Source: Acidobacteriota bacterium
Lineage (GTDB): Bacteria > Acidobacteriota > UBA4820 > DSQY01
DNA: 35,752 nucleotides
Assembly (NCBI GenBank): GCA_049967655.1
Contig: JBMFSH010000028.1
Location: 1-35,752, forward strand
Direction of reading: 5' to 3'
In this document: positions 26,189 to 35,220 of the stretch, in pieces
Layout of the letters: each line of letters starts with the position of its first letter
Position numbering within the stretch: position 1 is the stretch's first letter
Notes under the pieces: generated by a model
What the model was told of the DNA's origin: nothing
Databases searched by the model: none
What the model saw: the letters and a program-made list of their open reading frames with translations, nothing else
Position numbers and translations under genes: made by a program

Positions 26189-28825
26189 ATGGTAACTCTA
26201 AAGCTTAGGGGGTGCAGTGCACTATTTAGGTGGCTGATGGCGCCGGCGCTTCTATGGGGAACGATTGCGGCTCACGGTGCCTCTTGCCGGAACCTCTACC
26301 CTTCGGCCGCAGGCGAGGCCTCCAGCCACTGGGCCATGGAGTTGGCCCAGCCGGCTTCGAATTTAACTCTCTTCGACCGCCAGGATAGCACAGGGAACCT
26401 CTATTTTTCAGGTTTCGCGAATCCGGGCGCCATCGGCGGCTACGATGTGCTGCTCTACGCGCTCTCACCGGGAGGGACACTGGAGTGGAGCAAGGCATAC
26501 GGTACCACCGCCGATGACGTGGGGAGCGTGGGACTCCTTACGAACGATGGCGGTTTCCTGCTGGTCGGGAATACCTATGTTTCGTTCAACACGTCGCCGG
26601 CTCCCCAGGACTCCTGGGTCTGCAAACTCGATGGGAACGGAAACATCCAGTGGCAGGATGCGTTCTTTAATACGGCTTCCGAACCGCTGACGATCCAAAC
26701 GGCCTATGCCATTCCCGGTGGCTATCTCCTGGTGGCCGCCTATTACCAGTCGCCTTCGGCGGGTGGCTTCGACTTCATCGCGGTGTCCGACACGGGCAAT
26801 GTCTTGTGGCAGCAGGGCTACGGTAGCCCCACGCTCAGCTACGCCCCTCCCAACGTGAGGGTGCTTTCGGACGGCAGCTTCGTGGCCGCTGGCTCAGCTT
26901 CCGGCTCGAATGGCACCAGCGCCATTTACGCCGTTATGTTCTCTCCCACGGGCTCGATCGAATGGCAAGAGACGGTATCAGGGGCTACGGGCGGGTCGGT
27001 GTGGGGGCCACTGAGCGACGGAAGTATCCTGCTGGAAGGTTCCACCTCCCTCTATGGTGGCGGTCAAGGGCCTCACCCTTGGGTGTTGGACCTTGATCCG
27101 ACGAATGGAGCCATCCTATGGCAAAAGGTCTACGCCGGCTCAGGGCAGGATTACGGAGCGCTTGTGCCCGACCCATCGGACAGCGGGTTGCTCCTGAACG
27201 GATGGACTACCTCAGCCGGTACCGGCAACCAGGAGCTATGGGTTGCCCAAACGGATCTCGCGGGTAACATCTTCTCCCAAGAAGTAATCGGAGGAGCGAA
27301 CAATACTACTGGAACCGTATATCCAGACCCGGCCGGAGGCTATTTGGCTCAGGGGGTTTCGATAGAGCCTAATAACCAATCTGAATCGTCATGGATCGTC
27401 AAGCTCAGCGAGACGCTCTCCATTCTCTGGCAAGATACCTTGGGACAGAGCCTGACCGCTGGGAACCTCTTTTCTTTCGCCGTTCCGAACCGACTCACCA
27501 ATGGCGATCTGCTGGCGGACGGCTTTCTCCTGTCGTATGGGCAACTTCCCACCCCACCGGCGTATCAATCGTTGGCCTGGGAAATGGATTCCTCCGGCAG
27601 TGTGGGTTACTCCTGTTCGAGTGTGGGTCAAGGCAGCTTGGTGGCACAGCAAGCTTCTCTCAAGGCAACCACCACGATGGCGAGTGTCTCGCCTGGGGAT
27701 CTAGCCACCGCATCACAACCGTTTACGGTGGAACCCGGCTCCTTGGCCGAACAACCGCAGTCGCTCACCTTCCAGGACCTCTGCTCGGGGGGGCCAGGCT
27801 CCCTGACCGCCAGCGCCTCGGCGAATGTGACATCAGGGCCCCCTCCACTGACGGTCCAATTCTCGGCCAACGTGACAGGCGGCACTCCGCCTTATGCCTA
27901 TGCATGGAGCTTCGGCGACCAGAGCGCCCCTAGCTCCGAGCAGAATCCCACCCACGTCTACACTCAGCCAGGTACCTACCCCGTCACCTTGGAAGTGACC
28001 GACAGTACGGGCGCCACTAGCACCGACAGTCACCTCAGCATCCAGGTCACGCCGAGTTCAACCTACAGCATTTCCGGGACCGTGACTTTAGGGACTTTGG
28101 GTTTGCAAGGGGTGACGGTCAGCACGGGCAGTACCAGCACGATCACCGACGGCAGTGGAAACTACACCCTGACCGGACTGGTGAACGGCAGCTACACGGT
28201 AACGCCGACGCTCACGGGGTACGCTTTTTCTCCTTCTAGCCAAAGCATCGCTATCAACGGGGCCAACGTGACGGGGGTGAATTTTGTGGCAGTTACCTCT
28301 GCTTGCAGTCTCTCTTGTAGCGCCAGCGGGCCGGCCACTGCTCTCGTGAACACCCCCGTCTCGTTTCAAGCGACGGCGACGCCTTCGGTGGCGTGCAGCG
28401 GCCTAACACCCTCCTACTCGTGGAGCTTCGGGGACGGAGGCACGTCGAGCCAGCAGAATCCCACGCATACCTACGCAGCGGCAGGCACCTACAGCTGGAC
28501 CATGACGGCGAGCGCGCCAGGCAGCACGCCGTGCTCCCAATCGGGAAGCATCACCGTCACCGACGCGCCTCCTCCGGTCGTGACGGCAGTTACCAAAATG
28601 GGCCCTCCCTTCCGGTTAGTCGTCAAGGGTAGCGACCTGCAGAACGGCATCCATGTATTCATCAATGGGACGCAGTGGACCAACACGGCCTGGAAGTCCA
28701 CCAACAAGATCGTGATCAAGGGAGGCGCTTCGCTCAAGGCGCTCGTGCCCAAGAACACCCCCGTCACCCTCACCTTCGTGAATCCGGATGGGGGAACGGC
28801 TACAGTGAACGGTTGGACTTGGTAG
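26189..28825 (+). CDS. Secreted protein: beta-propeller-like repeats, two PKD domains, carboxypeptidase-regulatory-like domain and conserved C-terminal domain
   Basis: Signal peptide; repeated G.i.WQ..YG blades; WSFGD...QNPTHxY twice; TDGSGNYTLTGL. Confidence 0.9.
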   Translation: MVTLKLRGCSALFRWLMAPALLWGTIAAHGASCRNLYPSAAGEASSHWAMELAQPASNLTLFDRQDSTGNLYFSGFANPGAIGGYDVLLYALSPGGTLEWSKAYGTTADDVGSVGLLTNDGGFLLVGNTYVSFNTSPAPQDSWVCKLDGNGNIQWQDAFFNTASEPLTIQTAYAIPGGYLLVAAYYQSPSAGGFDFIAVSDTGNVLWQQGYGSPTLSYAPPNVRVLSDGSFVAAGSASGSNGTSAIYAVMFSPTGSIEWQETVSGATGGSVWGPLSDGSILLEGSTSLYGGGQGPHPWVLDLDPTNGAILWQKVYAGSGQDYGALVPDPSDSGLLLNGWTTSAGTGNQELWVAQTDLAGNIFSQEVIGGANNTTGTVYPDPAGGYLAQGVSIEPNNQSESSWIVKLSETLSILWQDTLGQSLTAGNLFSFAVPNRLTNGDLLADGFLLSYGQLPTPPAYQSLAWEMDSSGSVGYSCSSVGQGSLVAQQASLKATTTMASVSPGDLATASQPFTVEPGSLAEQPQSLTFQDLCSGGPGSLTASASANVTSGPPPLTVQFSANVTGGTPPYAYAWSFGDQSAPSSEQNPTHVYTQPGTYPVTLEVTDSTGATSTDSHLSIQVTPSSTYSISGTVTLGTLGLQGVTVSTGSTSTITDGSGNYTLTGLVNGSYTVTPTLTGYAFSPSSQSIAINGANVTGVNFVAVTSACSLSCSASGPATALVNTPVSFQATATPSVACSGLTPSYSWSFGDGGTSSQQNPTHTYAAAGTYSWTMTASAPGSTPCSQSGSITVTDAPPPVVTAVTKMGPPFRLVVKGSDLQNGIHVFINGTQWTNTAWKSTNKIVIKGGASLKALVPKNTPVTLTFVNPDGGTATVNGWTW

Positions 28826-29171
28826 CCTTGTATGTCTGAGTGCGAACCCATGGGCCAGAAGCAGGGAGGCATTGTTGCTGCCTTCTCCTTGCTGTATCGG
28901 AAGGCTGTCGGCCAGTGGCTTCAGTCGAAAAAGGCGCGCCGCTGATGACGCCGCGCCGGCGGTTGCGGTATGGTAGGGTCGGGGTTTCGCCCGAAGGGGG
29001 TCGCGCCATGGACTCGGCACTCAAGCAGCACTCAGCGCCCATTCCCGAGGCTGAGACGCCTCTCGCAGGATGGGGTCCCGCGAACTCCTCTCTCCTCTTC
29101 AATCCCTCATCCTTCATCATCAGTATCTTCCATCATCGATCATCGCCTTTTCTTCCACTGGGAGCCGGCCG

Positions 29172-30464
29172 ATGAACTGGAAAGCTTTCTCTGCTTTCAT
29201 TGCCCTCGTGGTGCTCTTCGTGGCCGGCATCGGCCTGCTCATGTTCGTGCGGCGCCCGTCGGCCATGACGTTCTTCTTCACGGCCGACACTCAGGGCTAC
29301 CTGGTGCCCTGCGGGTGCAAGGTGATCCCCGCCGGCGGGTTGGCGCGGCGCGCGACCGTGCTGGATGGTCTCAGGAAGAGCGACGGCGGGGAGCGGGTCG
29401 TCCCCATCGAGGTGACCCACGGCTTCGCCGACCGTGGACCGGGCCGTGCCCTTCTCAACGAGGAGATGGGGCGATTCTTTGCGAGGGAGGGCTACCTCGT
29501 GGGCCTGGGGAGCTACGACCTCCTCCTGGGCATCCCGGCCCTGCGCGAGGCCGCGCCCGGCGTGCCGCTCTACCTGGCGGGGGAGAAGGGGCTGCCCGGC
29601 TCGAAGGAGTTCCGCCTGGGCGGCTGGGGATGGGGCCCCATCGGCGATCGCGGGGTCGGGCTGCGCGTCATCTTCCTGGCAGAGACCGCTCCGGGTGGAG
29701 TGTCCATCGGCGACCCGCTGAAGGCCTACCGCCGGGAGGTTGCCGAGCATCCCTCGGAGAGGACCGTCGTGGTAGGCCAGCTCAGTCCCCAGACGCTGAC
29801 GGGGCTGTTCAAGATGCAGCCTCCCCCTCTCCTGGCGGTGGCCCAGTGGCAGACCGACGTGACCAGCATGCCCCAGGCCGTCGGGCCGTCCTGGGTGCTC
29901 TTCATGGGTGATCGGGGCCGAAGGTCGGCCACGGCGAGGATCCAGTGGACGGGGAAGGAGTTCAACGTCCTGCCCACCATCCGTTACCTGGGCCCCGAAG
30001 TGGCCTCGGTGCCCGCCGTCGAGCGGGAGGTCGCGAAGGTGCTCGACCAGGTGGCGGCGGTCAACAAGGCCGCCCTGGCCAAGCTCTCCCGCCCGGCCGC
30101 CCCGGGCCGCGCCTACGTGGGCTCCGCCGGCTGCAAGACGTGCCACGCCGAGGCGCACAAGACGTGGTCCCTCTCCAGCCACGCCAGGGCCACGGCGGAC
30201 CTCGCCATCGACCACCAGCAGCAGAACCCCGCCTGCCTCCAGTGCCACGCCACCGCGCTGGGCGAGCCGGGGGGCTATCCCCAGGCCTCGGTGGACTTGG
30301 CCGGCGTGGGGTGCGAGGCCTGCCACGGCCCCGGCGAGGGCCACCCCGGGCGGGCCATGGAGATGCAGCCCGCGGGCCCCCAGGCCTGCGGAGCCTGCCA
30401 CACCCCCCGCGACTCTCCCCTGTTCGACGCGGCGGGCTACTGGAAGCTCATTCAGCACAAGTAG
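29172..30464 (+). CDS. Tetraheme cytochrome c fused to an UshA/5'-nucleotidase-like N-terminal domain
   Basis: N-terminal anchor; FTADTQGYLVPCGC...GGLARR; CKTCH, CLQCH, CEACH, CGACH. Confidence 0.88.
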   Translation: MNWKAFSAFIALVVLFVAGIGLLMFVRRPSAMTFFFTADTQGYLVPCGCKVIPAGGLARRATVLDGLRKSDGGERVVPIEVTHGFADRGPGRALLNEEMGRFFAREGYLVGLGSYDLLLGIPALREAAPGVPLYLAGEKGLPGSKEFRLGGWGWGPIGDRGVGLRVIFLAETAPGGVSIGDPLKAYRREVAEHPSERTVVVGQLSPQTLTGLFKMQPPPLLAVAQWQTDVTSMPQAVGPSWVLFMGDRGRRSATARIQWTGKEFNVLPTIRYLGPEVASVPAVEREVAKVLDQVAAVNKAALAKLSRPAAPGRAYVGSAGCKTCHAEAHKTWSLSSHARATADLAIDHQQQNPACLQCHATALGEPGGYPQASVDLAGVGCEACHGPGEGHPGRAMEMQPAGPQACGACHTPRDSPLFDAAGYWKLIQHK

Positions 30465-30512
30465 GAAGGTGCCCGGCTCGGCGGGGGGATCGGGACGCGG
30501 CGCCCCGTCGTC

Positions 30513-30537
30513 GCAGGAGCGATCTCCAGAGCGCGAA
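30513..30537 (+). repeat. Degenerate single REP of the 9925 family
   Basis: gcaggagcgatctccagagcgcgaa vs gtaggagcgctctccagagcgcgat. Confidence 0.7.
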
Positions 30538-30641
30538 TTGTCCAAGGCGCTACCCCCTCACTGCGGCGAGCCGGCCGGGCGCCTCCGGCGCCTCGGCCAG
30601 GACGCGGCATCAGCGGGGCGAAAGGCGCTCTGTCATTGAGC

Positions 30642-30690
30642 GTCACCCCGTGGCCTCCTCCAGCGGTCTTCTGACACGGGGTCCCGGCGT
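30642..30690 (+). repeat. 49-bp hairpin direct repeat, copy 1
   Basis: Near-identical to 31042-31090; accccgtg...cacggggt stem. Confidence 0.85.
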
Positions 30691-30790
30691 CCCCGCCCCC
30701 GCGCCCTCCTCCCCGCCGCCGCGCGCGCCCTGGCACGCCCTTCGGGCGGCCGGCTCTCGTGGCTTCGAAGGACCGCCCTCCCCCCCCTCT

Positions 30791-30945
30791 GGGTGCGCCG
30801 ACGGCGGCGGACCTTCTGCGTCGTCAGGTATCGGCGCCCACATCCTCAGCGTACGCAAAGTACGCTTGCGGTGTGGTCGCCTCACCTTCCTAGCATAAGG
30901 CCCACCGGCGTCGGGACGCCGCTTTCCGCCTTGGGCGGAAGGCGG
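30791..30945 (+). repeat. Structured GTAC-hairpin repeat, second copy
   Basis: 5' part matches 10764-10846; 3' part matches 1-47. Confidence 0.85.
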
Positions 30946-31041
30946 GTGGCACGACGCCAGGGGAAGGGGAGCGGGGGAACGGGGAGGTTCCCCCGCCCAA
31001 GAGGGCATCCCACGTGAGAGCAGAGATGGGCCTCGACCCCT

Positions 31042-31090
31042 GTCACCCCGTGGCCTCCTCCAGAGGGCTTCTGACACGGGGTCCCGCCGT
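31042..31090 (+). repeat. 49-bp hairpin direct repeat, copy 2
   Basis: Near-identical to 30642-30690, exactly 400 bp downstream. Confidence 0.85.
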
Positions 31091-31245
31091 TGCGGGGACG
31101 CGCCTTCCTCCCTCCGATGGGAGGGCATTGCCCAGCTCCGGCGCTCACACGTACCCAGGAGCGGCCTTTTCATGTCCGGAGGTTTCTCTCGGTGCCTCTG
31201 TGTCTCTGTGGTGACTGGACGTGGGTCTGGGTCCTTTTCGGCGGC

Positions 31246-34200
31246 CTATCGGCTGAAGGGCAGGACGGCGGATCGCCCGCCGTCCGGATTGACGATGCGC
31301 ACCCAGACCGCGCAGCCCTCCGGCAGCATGGCCTTGAGATCGGTCCCCCCTTTGGCGACCAGCGCGGAGGCTTTTCTGAACTGGGTCTGAGGCGCGGGGG
31401 TTCCCGACAGGAGCACCTGACTGCCCGTCTGGAAGCCCGAGCCCGAGACCAGGAGCCGGAACGGCGATCCCAGCTTCCGGACCGCAGTGAGGGCGGGGTT
31501 GTCCAGGGTGACTCCAAGGGGATCGGAGGTCGTGTTCTGCCCGGCCGTGTCCGTGGCGCGGGCGGTGAGGGTGTGCGGCCCGGCCATCCCGGCGCTGTCC
31601 CAGTCGATCTGCCAGGGCTGGGCCTGCGCGCTGCCCACCGGTGTGCCGTCCACGAGGAAGGTGACCTCGGATACGCCCCGGTCGTCGGTCGCCGCGGCGG
31701 AGAGACGGACCGTCCCGTGGACGCTGGCTCCGGCCTGCGGCGTTGACACCGTTACCTGGGGGGGTTCGTCCGCAGCGCCCTCGCACGGATCGGGAACGCC
31801 CGCGCTGGTGATCTGGAGGTCGTCCAGCTCGAAGCCGTCGAACTCCGCTCCCGGATCGGTGGTCAGCCGCCAGCGGATGCGGACCCGCCGGCCCGCGTAC
31901 GGGGAGAGGTCTTGGGTGTATGCGGTCCACGGCGTGAGGCAGGCGTTCCCGGCGGGGCCGGTGAAACATCCCTGCGAGGCGGGGTAGGTGCAGGCGTTGA
32001 TGGGCGGGTCGCCCGTGAGGGAGAGGGTCCCAGGGTAGCCGCCCGCGGGCACGAGGGTCTGCCACGTGGAACCGGCGTCGGCCGAAATCTGCACCACCAC
32101 GCCGTCGTAGTCCACCTCCAGGTTGTACCTGGCCCAGTAGGTCAACTGGGGCGTCCCCTCCTGCAGCAGGACGTCGGGCGTGATCAGGGAGGCGCAGACG
32201 TTGGCCGGGTAGGTGCGGCCGTCCTGCGCGCTCCGGTAGCAGAGGCCTCCCCCCGCGGTGTGGTTGTCCTGGCGGCTCACGGTCCAGGGTGCCTCGGTGT
32301 GCAGAAGCGCCGCGGTATCGCCGCCGTCATCCGTCCAGGTGCCCGGCGAGAAGGTCCCCGCCGTGGGGGTCACGCTCAGCCAGCGCGCGTTGGCCTCCTC
32401 GTTGCCCCCGTTGGCGGGGCCGCCGTTCAGGGCCGTCCCATCCTCCGCCCGCACCACGTAGTAATAGGTGATGCCGGAGAGCACGGCGGAGTCCGTGAAG
32501 GTGGTGCCGGCCAGGCCGCTGGCGACCCGGCTGACCGCCGAGGGCGTGAAGTAGGGGTCGCTCCCGCGGTAGATGTTGTAACCGACGCCCGGCGCGAGGG
32601 GGCAACTGGAGGCTCCGGGCCGCCAGGACAACACCACGGAGCAGGTGGGACCGGAGGGGCTGCTCTCGGCCGTCTGCACGCCCTCGAAGCTGGGCGCGAG
32701 GGTGCAGTTGCCCGCGAAAGCTGCGAAACCGCAGGGCGAGGCGGCTCCCTCCCCGCAGTCGCCTTCGGCGCGCACCCGGTAGGCATAGCCGAATCCGCCC
32801 TGCACCAGGGCGTCGCGGAAGCTCGAGCCGTCGGTCTCGGCGAGGAAGTGGAAGGAGCCGGCCTCGGCCGAGCAGTCTCCGGCGGCCCGTTCGATCCGGT
32901 AGCGCGGCGCGCCCGTGGTTGGCCAGGTGAGGCCGATGCCTCCCTCCCCGGCATCCGTGGCCGCCAGGGAGACGGGGGGCTCGGGCGCATCCTGGCAGTC
33001 GGAGTAGGTCGCCACGAGCGCGTAGCCCTGGCGGTCCGAACCGGCTTCGGAGGGAGTGCCGGGCACACAGGCCCCGCGCACGGCGACGGTCCAGACTCCG
33101 GCCGCGGGCGCCGGAACCAGCACCTCTTCCACCGTGTTGAGATCGTCGGGTGTTCCGCCCGGGACGGAGGCGCCCTCCGAGAAGACGTTGCCCAGGTAGC
33201 GCACGCCGTCGGGGCCGGTGACCTCCAGGTCCAGGTCGTTGACCAGCGCTAGCCCCGAGACCGGCGAGGCCTCGGGGTCGGTCCAGGCGAGCGTCACCTT
33301 CAGGGGCCTGTTCGGGGAGAGCCCCACTTCGAATCGGTCCACCTCCTCCGTGGCGAGGCCGGCCCCGTTCCTCTTGTCCCAGACCCTGAGCCTCTGCGGG
33401 CTGCGGTGGGGGGAGGCGAAGGCGCAGACGTCGTCCAGCCGCACCCGGCCCCAGCCTTCGCTCTCGTTGGGAATATCCGGCGCCGCCACGTCCATGGCGC
33501 CGTTGATGAGGGCGGCCTTGATCAGGGCCCCGCTGGGAGTGAGGGAGTCCGCCGGGTTGCGGACGCCCGAAGGGTAGAAGCCGTCGGTGAAATACTGGCG
33601 CAGGAGGAGAGCAGCGCCGGCGGCCGTGGGCGTTGCCATGGAGGTGCCGCTCATGATCGTCGTGACGCAGTTCATGGACGAGTGGGAGTTGTCCCCGAGC
33701 GCCGAGTTGATGACCTGGCCGGGCGTGCAGAGGTCGGGCTTCATGCGGCCGTCGAGGGTGGGGCCGCGGGAGGAGAAGCCGGTCACCGCGTCGGCGCCGT
33801 AGGAGCCGTTGGTCACGGCTCCCACGGTGATGCAGTCCTTGGCGGCCGCGGGAGAGCCCACGGTCCCGGCCTCCGGGCCGGCGTTCCCGCCGGCGAAGAA
33901 GAGCTGGAACTCCTCGTGGCGGTAGAGGAACCGGTCCACGGATAGGCAATCGTCGGTGTAGATCCCGGCGGTGTCGGAGCCCCACGAGTCGGAATGGATC
34001 CGCGCCCCTGCGTTGAAGGCCTGCTGGTAGACGATCTGGTTGTCCGTGGCCAGCCCGGCGAGGGTTCCCGAACCCTCGTTGCCTACGTCCTGGAAGAAGA
34101 TCTTGGCATTCGGCGCCATGCCGTCGCCGAAGTCGTGGCCGCCCGAGGTCGGGGTGGAGGGCGTGGCGTAGTTGTCCCCGGCCACGCTGCCGGTCGTGTG

Positions 34201-35220
34201 GGTCCCGTGGTTGAAGAAGGCGAATCCGTCGTAGGGCGTCGCCCCGGGCAGGACGTCATAGGCCACCACCTTGCGCGCGAGATCCAGAGGGCCAGCCGCC
34301 GGGGGCACGGGCGACTGGGCGTCGGTGATCCCGTCCGGGCCGTAGCTGAAGAAGCACATGTCACTGTCCAGGCCCGAGTCGGCCACGGCGGCGATCTGCC
34401 CCGTGCCGGTGATGCCTTGGTTCCAGAGGGTGGCCGAGAGCGCGTAGTTGGTGCGGTCCGCCGTGTCGTAGCTCTGCACGACCCAGATGGAGTTGTCGTT
34501 CCTGAGATGGGGCGGAAGCCACGGGTCCACGCTCCATACGGCCGCGTCCGCGGCGGCCGCCGCCACCACGGCCGGAAGCACGGCGGACGGAGGAAGGATC
34601 CGCAGCAAAGCCCCGTCCTCAGCGGAGCCCAACACCTGCGCGCCGGACAGATCGGGGAAGACGGAGCGCAGCCGCCCCAGCAGTTGCCAAGGGTTCTCGC
34701 CCGGGAACAGGCGGAGGGAGAGATACGGCGCCCGATCCCACGAGACCGTCAGCGCGGGCGATATCTTCTCCTCGGGGAGGTAGGGGCCGATCCAGCGAAG
34801 CTCGGGCATGGCCTCCAGCGCCGAGAGGCCGGAGGCGTCCGCGCGGGCCAGGCAGGCGTTCGAGGGGATGCGGTCCAGGAACCGGAGGCCGGGGCGCTCG
34901 ATGGCCTTCAGCTCGGAGAGGCGGAGCTGCCGACGGAACTGCACGAGGTAGACGGTCGTCCTTCCGGGCGGCGGCGATTCGGGGCGAACCCTCGCGCGGG
35001 GTGCCGTTGAGCCGAGCGGATCGAAGGCGCCGGATCGCAGGAGGATGGTGCTCCCATCCACCCGAACGGCCGAGGTCCGAAGGGCTTCCGAACGGCCCGC
35101 CGCCGCGGCGGCGGGCGGAAGCTCTTGCGCCGCTGATGCCAGTGGCAGACCGGCGTTGAGGTGCTGTGTCGCCGGCCATCCAACCAGGCACAGGAACATC
35201 AAGGTCCCCAAACCGCGCAT
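31246..35220 (-). CDS. Large secreted S8 subtilisin-like protease (Kp43-like) with Fn3-like, jelly-roll, Ig and conserved C-terminal domains
   Basis: Signal peptide; AVADSG, HGTHTTGS, FAGGN, SGTSMATP catalytic motifs; LVNDLDL; PPQVTVSTP...HTLTARATD Ig domain. Confidence 0.93.
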   Translation of the reverse strand: MRGLGTLMFLCLVGWPATQHLNAGLPLASAAQELPPAAAAAGRSEALRTSAVRVDGSTILLRSGAFDPLGSTAPRARVRPESPPPGRTTVYLVQFRRQLRLSELKAIERPGLRFLDRIPSNACLARADASGLSALEAMPELRWIGPYLPEEKISPALTVSWDRAPYLSLRLFPGENPWQLLGRLRSVFPDLSGAQVLGSAEDGALLRILPPSAVLPAVVAAAAADAAVWSVDPWLPPHLRNDNSIWVVQSYDTADRTNYALSATLWNQGITGTGQIAAVADSGLDSDMCFFSYGPDGITDAQSPVPPAAGPLDLARKVVAYDVLPGATPYDGFAFFNHGTHTTGSVAGDNYATPSTPTSGGHDFGDGMAPNAKIFFQDVGNEGSGTLAGLATDNQIVYQQAFNAGARIHSDSWGSDTAGIYTDDCLSVDRFLYRHEEFQLFFAGGNAGPEAGTVGSPAAAKDCITVGAVTNGSYGADAVTGFSSRGPTLDGRMKPDLCTPGQVINSALGDNSHSSMNCVTTIMSGTSMATPTAAGAALLLRQYFTDGFYPSGVRNPADSLTPSGALIKAALINGAMDVAAPDIPNESEGWGRVRLDDVCAFASPHRSPQRLRVWDKRNGAGLATEEVDRFEVGLSPNRPLKVTLAWTDPEASPVSGLALVNDLDLEVTGPDGVRYLGNVFSEGASVPGGTPDDLNTVEEVLVPAPAAGVWTVAVRGACVPGTPSEAGSDRQGYALVATYSDCQDAPEPPVSLAATDAGEGGIGLTWPTTGAPRYRIERAAGDCSAEAGSFHFLAETDGSSFRDALVQGGFGYAYRVRAEGDCGEGAASPCGFAAFAGNCTLAPSFEGVQTAESSPSGPTCSVVLSWRPGASSCPLAPGVGYNIYRGSDPYFTPSAVSRVASGLAGTTFTDSAVLSGITYYYVVRAEDGTALNGGPANGGNEEANARWLSVTPTAGTFSPGTWTDDGGDTAALLHTEAPWTVSRQDNHTAGGGLCYRSAQDGRTYPANVCASLITPDVLLQEGTPQLTYWARYNLEVDYDGVVVQISADAGSTWQTLVPAGGYPGTLSLTGDPPINACTYPASQGCFTGPAGNACLTPWTAYTQDLSPYAGRRVRIRWRLTTDPGAEFDGFELDDLQITSAGVPDPCEGAADEPPQVTVSTPQAGASVHGTVRLSAAATDDRGVSEVTFLVDGTPVGSAQAQPWQIDWDSAGMAGPHTLTARATDTAGQNTTSDPLGVTLDNPALTAVRKLGSPFRLLVSGSGFQTGSQVLLSGTPAPQTQFRKASALVAKGGTDLKAMLPEGCAVWVRIVNPDGGRSAVLPFSR

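Follow-up and report, generated by a model that had tools for sequence, protein, structure and literature searches.

Non-covalent attachment of proteins to the bacterial surface is known from the SLH, dockerin, GW and choline-binding modules, which are terminal modules on unrelated enzymes, lineage-restricted and interchangeable. Choice-of-anchor domains stand before a sorting signal, and substrate-binding modules are usually internal and in tandem. In the Bacteroidota, the type A C-terminal domain (CTD) of the type 9 secretion system (T9SS; TIGR04183/PF18962) is an Ig-like domain that ends diverse Sec-exported cargo. The accessible part of PMC12618676 reports that T9SS CTDs are sufficient for secretion and that several CTD types coexist in one genome, each with its own shuttles. 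The accessible part of PMC10828601 describes DR_1364 of D. radiodurans (PDB 8co1) as an IPT/TIG belt subunit of the type 2 secretion system (T2SS). In this study, we describe a basic domain of predicted IPT/TIG fold, called tag A below, that ends unrelated secreted-type proteins in an order of Acidobacteriota.

The window, which is the whole stretch of 35,752 nucleotides analysed, is contig C28 of a genome of 3.14 Mb with 66.7% GC, and it carries two copies of tag A. The first ends a secreted-type PKD protein of 878 aa (26189..28825, + strand) with a signal-like N-terminus, a probable propeller and a PKD/CarboxypepD_reg/PKD stalk; the first of its two PKD spacers (aa 552-618; 27842..28042, + strand) matched Pfam PKD_4 at E 1.7e-30 in two stretches. 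The second ends a secreted subtilase of 1324 aa (31246..35220, - strand), in which a signal peptide, the Peptidase_S8 catalytic domain (aa 272-591; 33448..34407, - strand; Pfam E 4.5e-39), InhA-MAM and a Big_7 Ig spacer directly before the tag (aa 1154-1220; 31561..31761, - strand; Pfam E 1.2e-17) were recognized. Each copy consists of 83 aa and the stop codon (28574..28825 on the + strand and 31246..31497 on the - strand). The preliminary description had noted that these two ends align without gaps at 35/83 identity and both finish at the stop while the rest of the proteins is unrelated, and this was confirmed. The local alignment score of the two copies was 182, against 24.5 +/- 4.7 (maximum 55) in 1000 shuffles, and Pfam assigned two PKD domains and CarboxypepD_reg to one remainder and Peptidase_S8, InhA-MAM and Big_7 to the other. 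Signal peptides had also been assigned to both proteins; the subtilase passed our crude heuristic, and the PKD protein, signal-like by eye, narrowly missed it.

Between the two tagged genes lies an untagged fusion of a UshA-like protein with a c554-type multiheme domain (29172-30464). It matched NF041198 at 130 bits, below the cut-off of 275, and has a cysteine where the name of this family indicates selenocysteine. An imperfect direct repeat of ~45 bp (30642-30686 and 31042-31086, 400 bp apart), which has an internal palindrome and is REP-like by eye, was noted downstream of the converging genes. The segment 20920-26084 holds a tandem of three genes whose products have an N-terminal zinc ribbon; the two final repeats of the 760-aa protein among them are TIG-like by eye and gave no match to the tag model.

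The source genome was searched with an iterated profile against 32,272 stop-to-stop frames, and the first match below the family stood at E 0.65. It holds 19 copies of tag A (15 near full length and 4 partial), one per protein, with pairwise identities of 33-66%. In 17 of them the tag lies within one residue of the stop, and the other two have tails of 16 and 26 residues. The cargo in this genome comprises an S8, two S53, two C1 and one trypsin-like protease, together with SBBP/DUF7948, kelch and PKD proteins. All 15 near-full copies have an Ig-type spacer (PKD, He_PIG, Big_7 or TIG) directly before the tag, and the linkers between them are a few residues long, with no common cleavage motif recognized by eye. 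The crude signal-peptide heuristic accepted ten of these 15 proteins; four others are truncated N-terminally, and the fifteenth is the PKD protein of the window. A second hydrophobic segment was seen in none of the 15. The layout is thus a signal peptide, an enzyme or binding head, Ig/PKD spacers and tag A, and the presence of the tag is all-or-none across genera. Complete untagged proteins of the same classes were also present in this genome, namely an S53 protease (C7:104707), a C1 peptidase (C40:4918) and a PKD protein (C7:102643).

Orphan 3' halves of the tag were observed in the source genome (G000) at C22:5020-5223, C39:1883-2050 and C32:2493-2654. The C22 remnant corresponds to a deletion of ~4.4 kb relative to L042, with L049 as a further reference, and a headless gene on C20 to one of ~1.2 kb relative to L032; C11 shows a similar rearrangement relative to L029. 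These three rearrangements may be real events or assembly joins. The genes beside the C22 remnant resemble what we take to be dsrC/dsrL/dsrMKJOP.

A search of 1.84 billion library proteins gave 2,642 matches, and the analysis was made on the best 150 of these. Among these 150, 110 domains of at least 50 bits were found in 109 proteins, 101 of them no more than 3 aa and 107 no more than 40 aa from the protein end, and none of the 37 domains of 20-40 bits lay within 40 aa of it. The tag was single in 108 of the 109 proteins, the exception being P0010 with two tandem tags. Extensions past the tag measured 6-31 aa. Since no domain among the best 150 scored between 32 and 55 bits, tag A is distinct from internal TIG repeats; the remaining proteins of this set rank through many weak repeats of that kind. 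Within the same set, the mean net charge of tag A was +6.7, whereas 83 aa of cargo carry -3.4 and the internal TIG repeats -0.4. Residues K8, P12, F13, R14, G19, K41, G51, L54, K55, P59, N70, D72 and G73 are 90-100% conserved, and the last residues are mostly aromatic-x-Arg/Trp.

The wider cargo includes proteases of four clans, multiheme cytochromes, an EF-hand protein and propellers. By the crude heuristic, 55 of 67 long Met-starting matches bear a signal, against 263 of 810 controls; among these 67 tagged proteins, a lipobox was found in two and a further hydrophobic segment in one. A tripartite sorting signal of the LPXTG, PEP-CTERM or GlyGly-CTERM kind was rejected because this extra segment occurs in 1/67 proteins and the tag is predicted to be a folded beta domain. 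The profile search proposed in the preliminary description returned many copies, strictly terminal, on proteins of signal-peptide type by this heuristic and in one lineage.

The earlier guess of an IPT/Ig-like module was supported by structure prediction. In the AlphaFold model of copy 1, which has a pLDDT of 96, a beta-sandwich is predicted with confidence, and residues 51-57 form a short helix. The best structural matches were IPT/TIG domains (Z 8-9, rmsd 2.2-2.9 A, 69-78 aligned), none of which stands out, and the ESM Atlas neighbours agreed. The gathering cut-off of Pfam TIG (PF01833) was passed by 3 of 15 copies, and neither copy of the window matched this family at E up to 1. Compared with IPT/TIG domains, to which it is linked by predicted fold, weak sequence match and Atlas neighbours, tag A has in addition a Lys-Gly-Gly loop and a helix (residues 49-59); its charge is about +7 rather than about 0, and it is single and terminal instead of internal and in tandem. 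The nearest NCBIfam family was NF058597 (CoaZ_rpt_PGGG, choice-of-anchor Z), whose 30-bit cut-off was passed by 8 of 15 copies, including copy 2 of the window (32.6 bits). However, an ordinary internal TIG also passes (L002, 36 bits), so NF058597 does not define the tag A subfamily; in addition, it is described as repeating, and tag A is itself the last element. DR_1364 shares the IPT/TIG fold (Z 8.3, 22% identity), but it is a stand-alone lipoprotein subunit of a machine and not a cargo tag, and the match is no better than those to other IPT domains. The possibility raised beforehand, that the domain is an ordinary TIG member with no terminal bias, was touched in part by the family matches, but the terminal bias is strong and the 32-55-bit range is empty among the best 150. 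In the literature searched, no description of tag A was found; supplements could hold such a domain. The fold is known, and the basic terminal subfamily is catalogued separately nowhere in the Pfam and NCBIfam libraries scanned. Tag A is a real, uncatalogued terminal tag subfamily.

The preliminary description had compared the domain with the T9SS CTD, and the likeness held by analogy: both appear to be Ig-like terminal domains of similar size on diverse Sec-exported cargo, and tag A shares the extreme C-terminal position on proteins with signal peptides. A sequence match was not obtained, as none of the 15 copies matched TIGR04183, TIGR04131 or PF18962 (NCBIfam at E up to 1, Pfam at 0.05-1). 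Among the 50 VIA matches and the Foldseek rows listed, no T9SS CTD was present; those listed were IPT/TIG and other Ig folds. PorV_fam stayed below its cut-off in 5/5 genomes, with the positive control detected, and searches for SprA_N and TIGR04183 were silent in 3/3 genomes, the controls being equally silent. Tag A also differs from the T9SS CTD in that its best structural matches are IPT/TIG domains and no shuttle gene adjoins the cargo. From the SLH, dockerin, GW and choline-binding modules it differs in fold, in its single copy and in its diderm host. By analogy, tag A may work like a T9SS CTD or like an anchor of the dockerin/SLH type.

Tag A is largely confined to one order. Of 29 genomes of this order, 23 hold 7-34 copies (22 of 28 besides the source genome), and the other six, which form the genera g2 and g5 and are 64-97% complete, are poor in it, five with no copy and one with a single diverged copy. 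Outside the order, 6 of 375 genomes of the phylum had one match each, with 13 candidates scored per genome. A scan of a genome collection with a 4-row alignment gave 31 related loci, all assigned to Acidobacteria/Acidobacteriota or, for two loci, Thermoanaerobaculia. Because family f2 has tag A, its absence from g2 and g5 is most simply explained as a loss. Of the lineage-specific address tag suggested earlier, the lineage restriction was upheld, and of its two possible roles, export and anchoring, we favour the anchor. Tandem arrays of up to ~nine cargo genes on the same strand with near-identical tags, several of them frameshifted, were observed in L192-L194 (G022:C24), L195-L196 (G017:C2) and L197-L198 (G020:C34); they are possible recombination hot spots. 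In L051 a copy is divided over two reading frames by a frameshift or a sequencing error.

The genomes that are poor in tag A carry other end domains. In the tag-less G007, 3/3 PKD proteins found end in a cysteine-containing domain of ~125 aa, named tag B (L053, L056, L058, L111-L140). A third terminal domain, tag C, was found on two G008 proteins; its loci are L062, L067, L141-L160, G000:C6:37403-38755 and C81:1532-2944. Neither tag B nor tag C belongs to a Pfam or NCBIfam family. Copies of tag B number 4-12 per genome where tag A is scarce (six genomes) and 0-8, with a median of 3, where it is abundant (23 genomes); tag C occurs in 18/23 A-rich and 0/6 A-poor genomes of the order. In the loci and matches examined, the distance to the protein end is at most 15 residues for 167/178 A, 45/45 B and 25/25 C domains, and the different tags never occur together in one protein. 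A homologue ending in tag A was found at E 1e-20 or better for 27 of 51 B cargoes; many of these matches are short common modules and several are long. The examples with tag B include a multiheme cytochrome (L163), 61% identical to L071 over 578 aa, the cargo L166, 57% identical to L028 over 780 aa, and L161 and L178, 53% identical to L055 over about 525 aa, the counterparts all bearing tag A. Either tag A or tag B, depending on the genome and with other families included, ends a multiheme cytochrome on an Ig/PKD stalk (L058, L104, L106, L107, L071), which is a candidate for electron transfer at the cell surface. One gene with tag C lies in an operon of mostly Pfam-less secreted proteins (G000:C6:29207-39807, L184) that resembles a chaperone-usher pilus operon by eye, with a 902-aa protein, three pilin-like paralogues and a beta-helix protein.

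No recurring transporter, barrel or peptidase was found beside the tagged genes at 17 sites of the source genome, 31 related loci and 7 array stretches. The source genome has a T2SS-like operon (T2SSF/E/secretin). Two secretins were present in all five genomes tested, tag-rich and tag-poor alike, and were rejected as partners since their presence is independent of tag A. The usher-like protein of 902 aa (C6:29207) was found in 0/5 relatives tested, a search in which no genome was positive; the BBP2 capsule barrel was present in the tag-poor G007 and G011 and not found in the tag-rich G008; and a FadL/PorV-like protein gave weak matches in 5/5 genomes that do not track tag A. Partial matches to a PQQ-propeller protein (C16:38023) in 5/5 genomes likewise did not follow the tag. 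The best candidate was a 979-aa Omp85-like protein (G000:C17:12668-15607; L181:4669-7608) with a paralogue at C9:2-1147. It has no Pfam family over the cut-off, and its model (pLDDT 91) predicts a GH39/PslG-like TIM barrel, a LolA/RseB-like domain and an Omp85-like membrane barrel. In fold the model resembles PslG, BamA, TamA and CdiB, at E of about 1e-8 to 1e-7. A shorter form, matching only from about profile position 385, was noted in family f32. Complex prediction of tag A with residues 362-957 of this protein scored 0.00 and gave no verdict.

Some addressing role of tag A, as an anchor or as an export signal, is highly probable. A docking role is likely because unrelated exported proteins end in tag A and related genera swap the end domain on homologous cargo. 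We give about an even chance to the reading that tag A is an uncleaved docking tag, which holds exported proteins on an order-specific envelope partner at the surface; this is read from charge, architecture and swapping. The proteins would cross the inner membrane by Sec export and pass the outer membrane likely through the T2SS-like machine, which is present with or without the tag. We presume from TIG topology that a free tip would bring together the conserved Lys and Arg residues, the Pro-Phe-Arg loop, the extra helix and the terminal aromatic-x-Arg/Trp. Judging from the charge, this basic tip may bind a putative acidic partner such as an LPS/capsule sugar or an acidic surface protein, and the Ig/PKD stalk would keep the head away from the cell. 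The genera g2 and g5 likely lost the partner and use tag B instead. The near-total absence of the tag from these two genera argues against binding to a generic polyanion, and the one capsule-export gene tested does not track tag A, which speaks against the anchor. We infer a surface location for the cargo, which could also be periplasmic.

The docking tag was preferred to an export signal because extensions of 6-31 aa are tolerated, P0010 has tandem tags, lone copies occur in distant genomes, untagged paralogues of the cargo exist, and no shuttle or other recurring machinery gene adjoins the tagged genes. A terminal, single and swappable Ig-like tag is nevertheless also the pattern of the T9SS CTDs, as far as the accessible part of PMC12618676 describes them, and the conserved terminal aromatic-x-Arg/Trp would be in keeping with recognition of the chain end by a receptor. 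It is possible, if rather doubtful, that tag A is an outer-membrane export signal, a T9SS CTD analogue for a translocon or shuttle, with the Omp85-like protein serving tags A, B and C as the best candidate; the strict terminal position, the single tag per protein and the swapping would fit this, as would the modelled likeness to PslG, BamA, TamA and CdiB. In tallies that take in the unpublished genome G052, on which no claim depends by itself, the candidate occurs in 154 of 401 genomes of the phylum, with 26/26 in the order and 128/375 outside it; there, 43 of the 46 genomes with tag B have it, and 85 of the 329 lacking tag B. As for DGFESG-type tails, it is present in 5/5 genomes that have at least six of them and in 1/12 that have 1-5. 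On the other hand, of the 128 carriers outside the order, 80 are without tag B and have fewer than six DGFESG tails. Closer inspection still gave no full match in three B-rich genomes (G095 and G161, with 9-10 B copies, and G328), and 4 of the 6 genomes with a lone tag A lack the candidate. In 17 loci its only neighbours are housekeeping genes, and its glycoside-hydrolase-like head equally suits a polysaccharide role. Because the candidate follows whole families, its overlap with the tags may reflect kinship alone, and it is a lead only; because it is retained in g2 and g5, it cannot account for the loss of tag A. A barrel of the kind that the preliminary description proposed to look for occurs in most tag-rich genomes.

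Apart from docking and export, tag A could be a basic TIG that binds carbohydrate or polyanion and targets released enzymes to food or biofilm. Its structural neighbours include the glycan-binding IPT domains of SGBP-B (Z 9.0, rmsd 2.6 A, 76 aligned), its surface is basic, and the lone copies in distant genomes would require no host machinery; but Z 8-9 is common to many unrelated IPT domains, the cargo listed above is chemically unrelated, and one copy per protein is the rule among the best 150 matches, which makes substrate binding improbable. We regard as still more improbable that tag A caps Ig stalks as an ordinary TIG domain without an addressing role and spread through one lineage by recombination. 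The Pfam TIG and CoaZ matches, the tandem arrays and the deletion remnants are consistent with such a cap, whereas the tags keep more than 12 near-invariant positions, several of them basic, at 33-66% identity, are practically never internal and are replaced one for one by unrelated terminal domains.

Surface display of large proteases, adhesins and multiheme cytochromes in uncultured Acidobacteriota has no description in the literature searched. If tag A is an export signal, its secretion route would lie outside the numbered systems. That about a third of the Acidobacteriota have an undescribed route of export and display, built on an orphan barrel of Omp85 type that is joined to LolA-like and PslG-like domains, seems unlikely to us; if true, interchangeable tags (A, B, C and the DGFESG tails) would mark its cargo, as a convergent analogue of T9SS. 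The 979-aa Omp85-like family is worth study in its own right. The genera g2 and g5, with tag B on homologous cargo, are a natural experiment that reduces the search for a receptor to a presence/absence problem, and the tag, on 7-34 proteins per genome, would serve as a direct readout of the surface proteome of this order.
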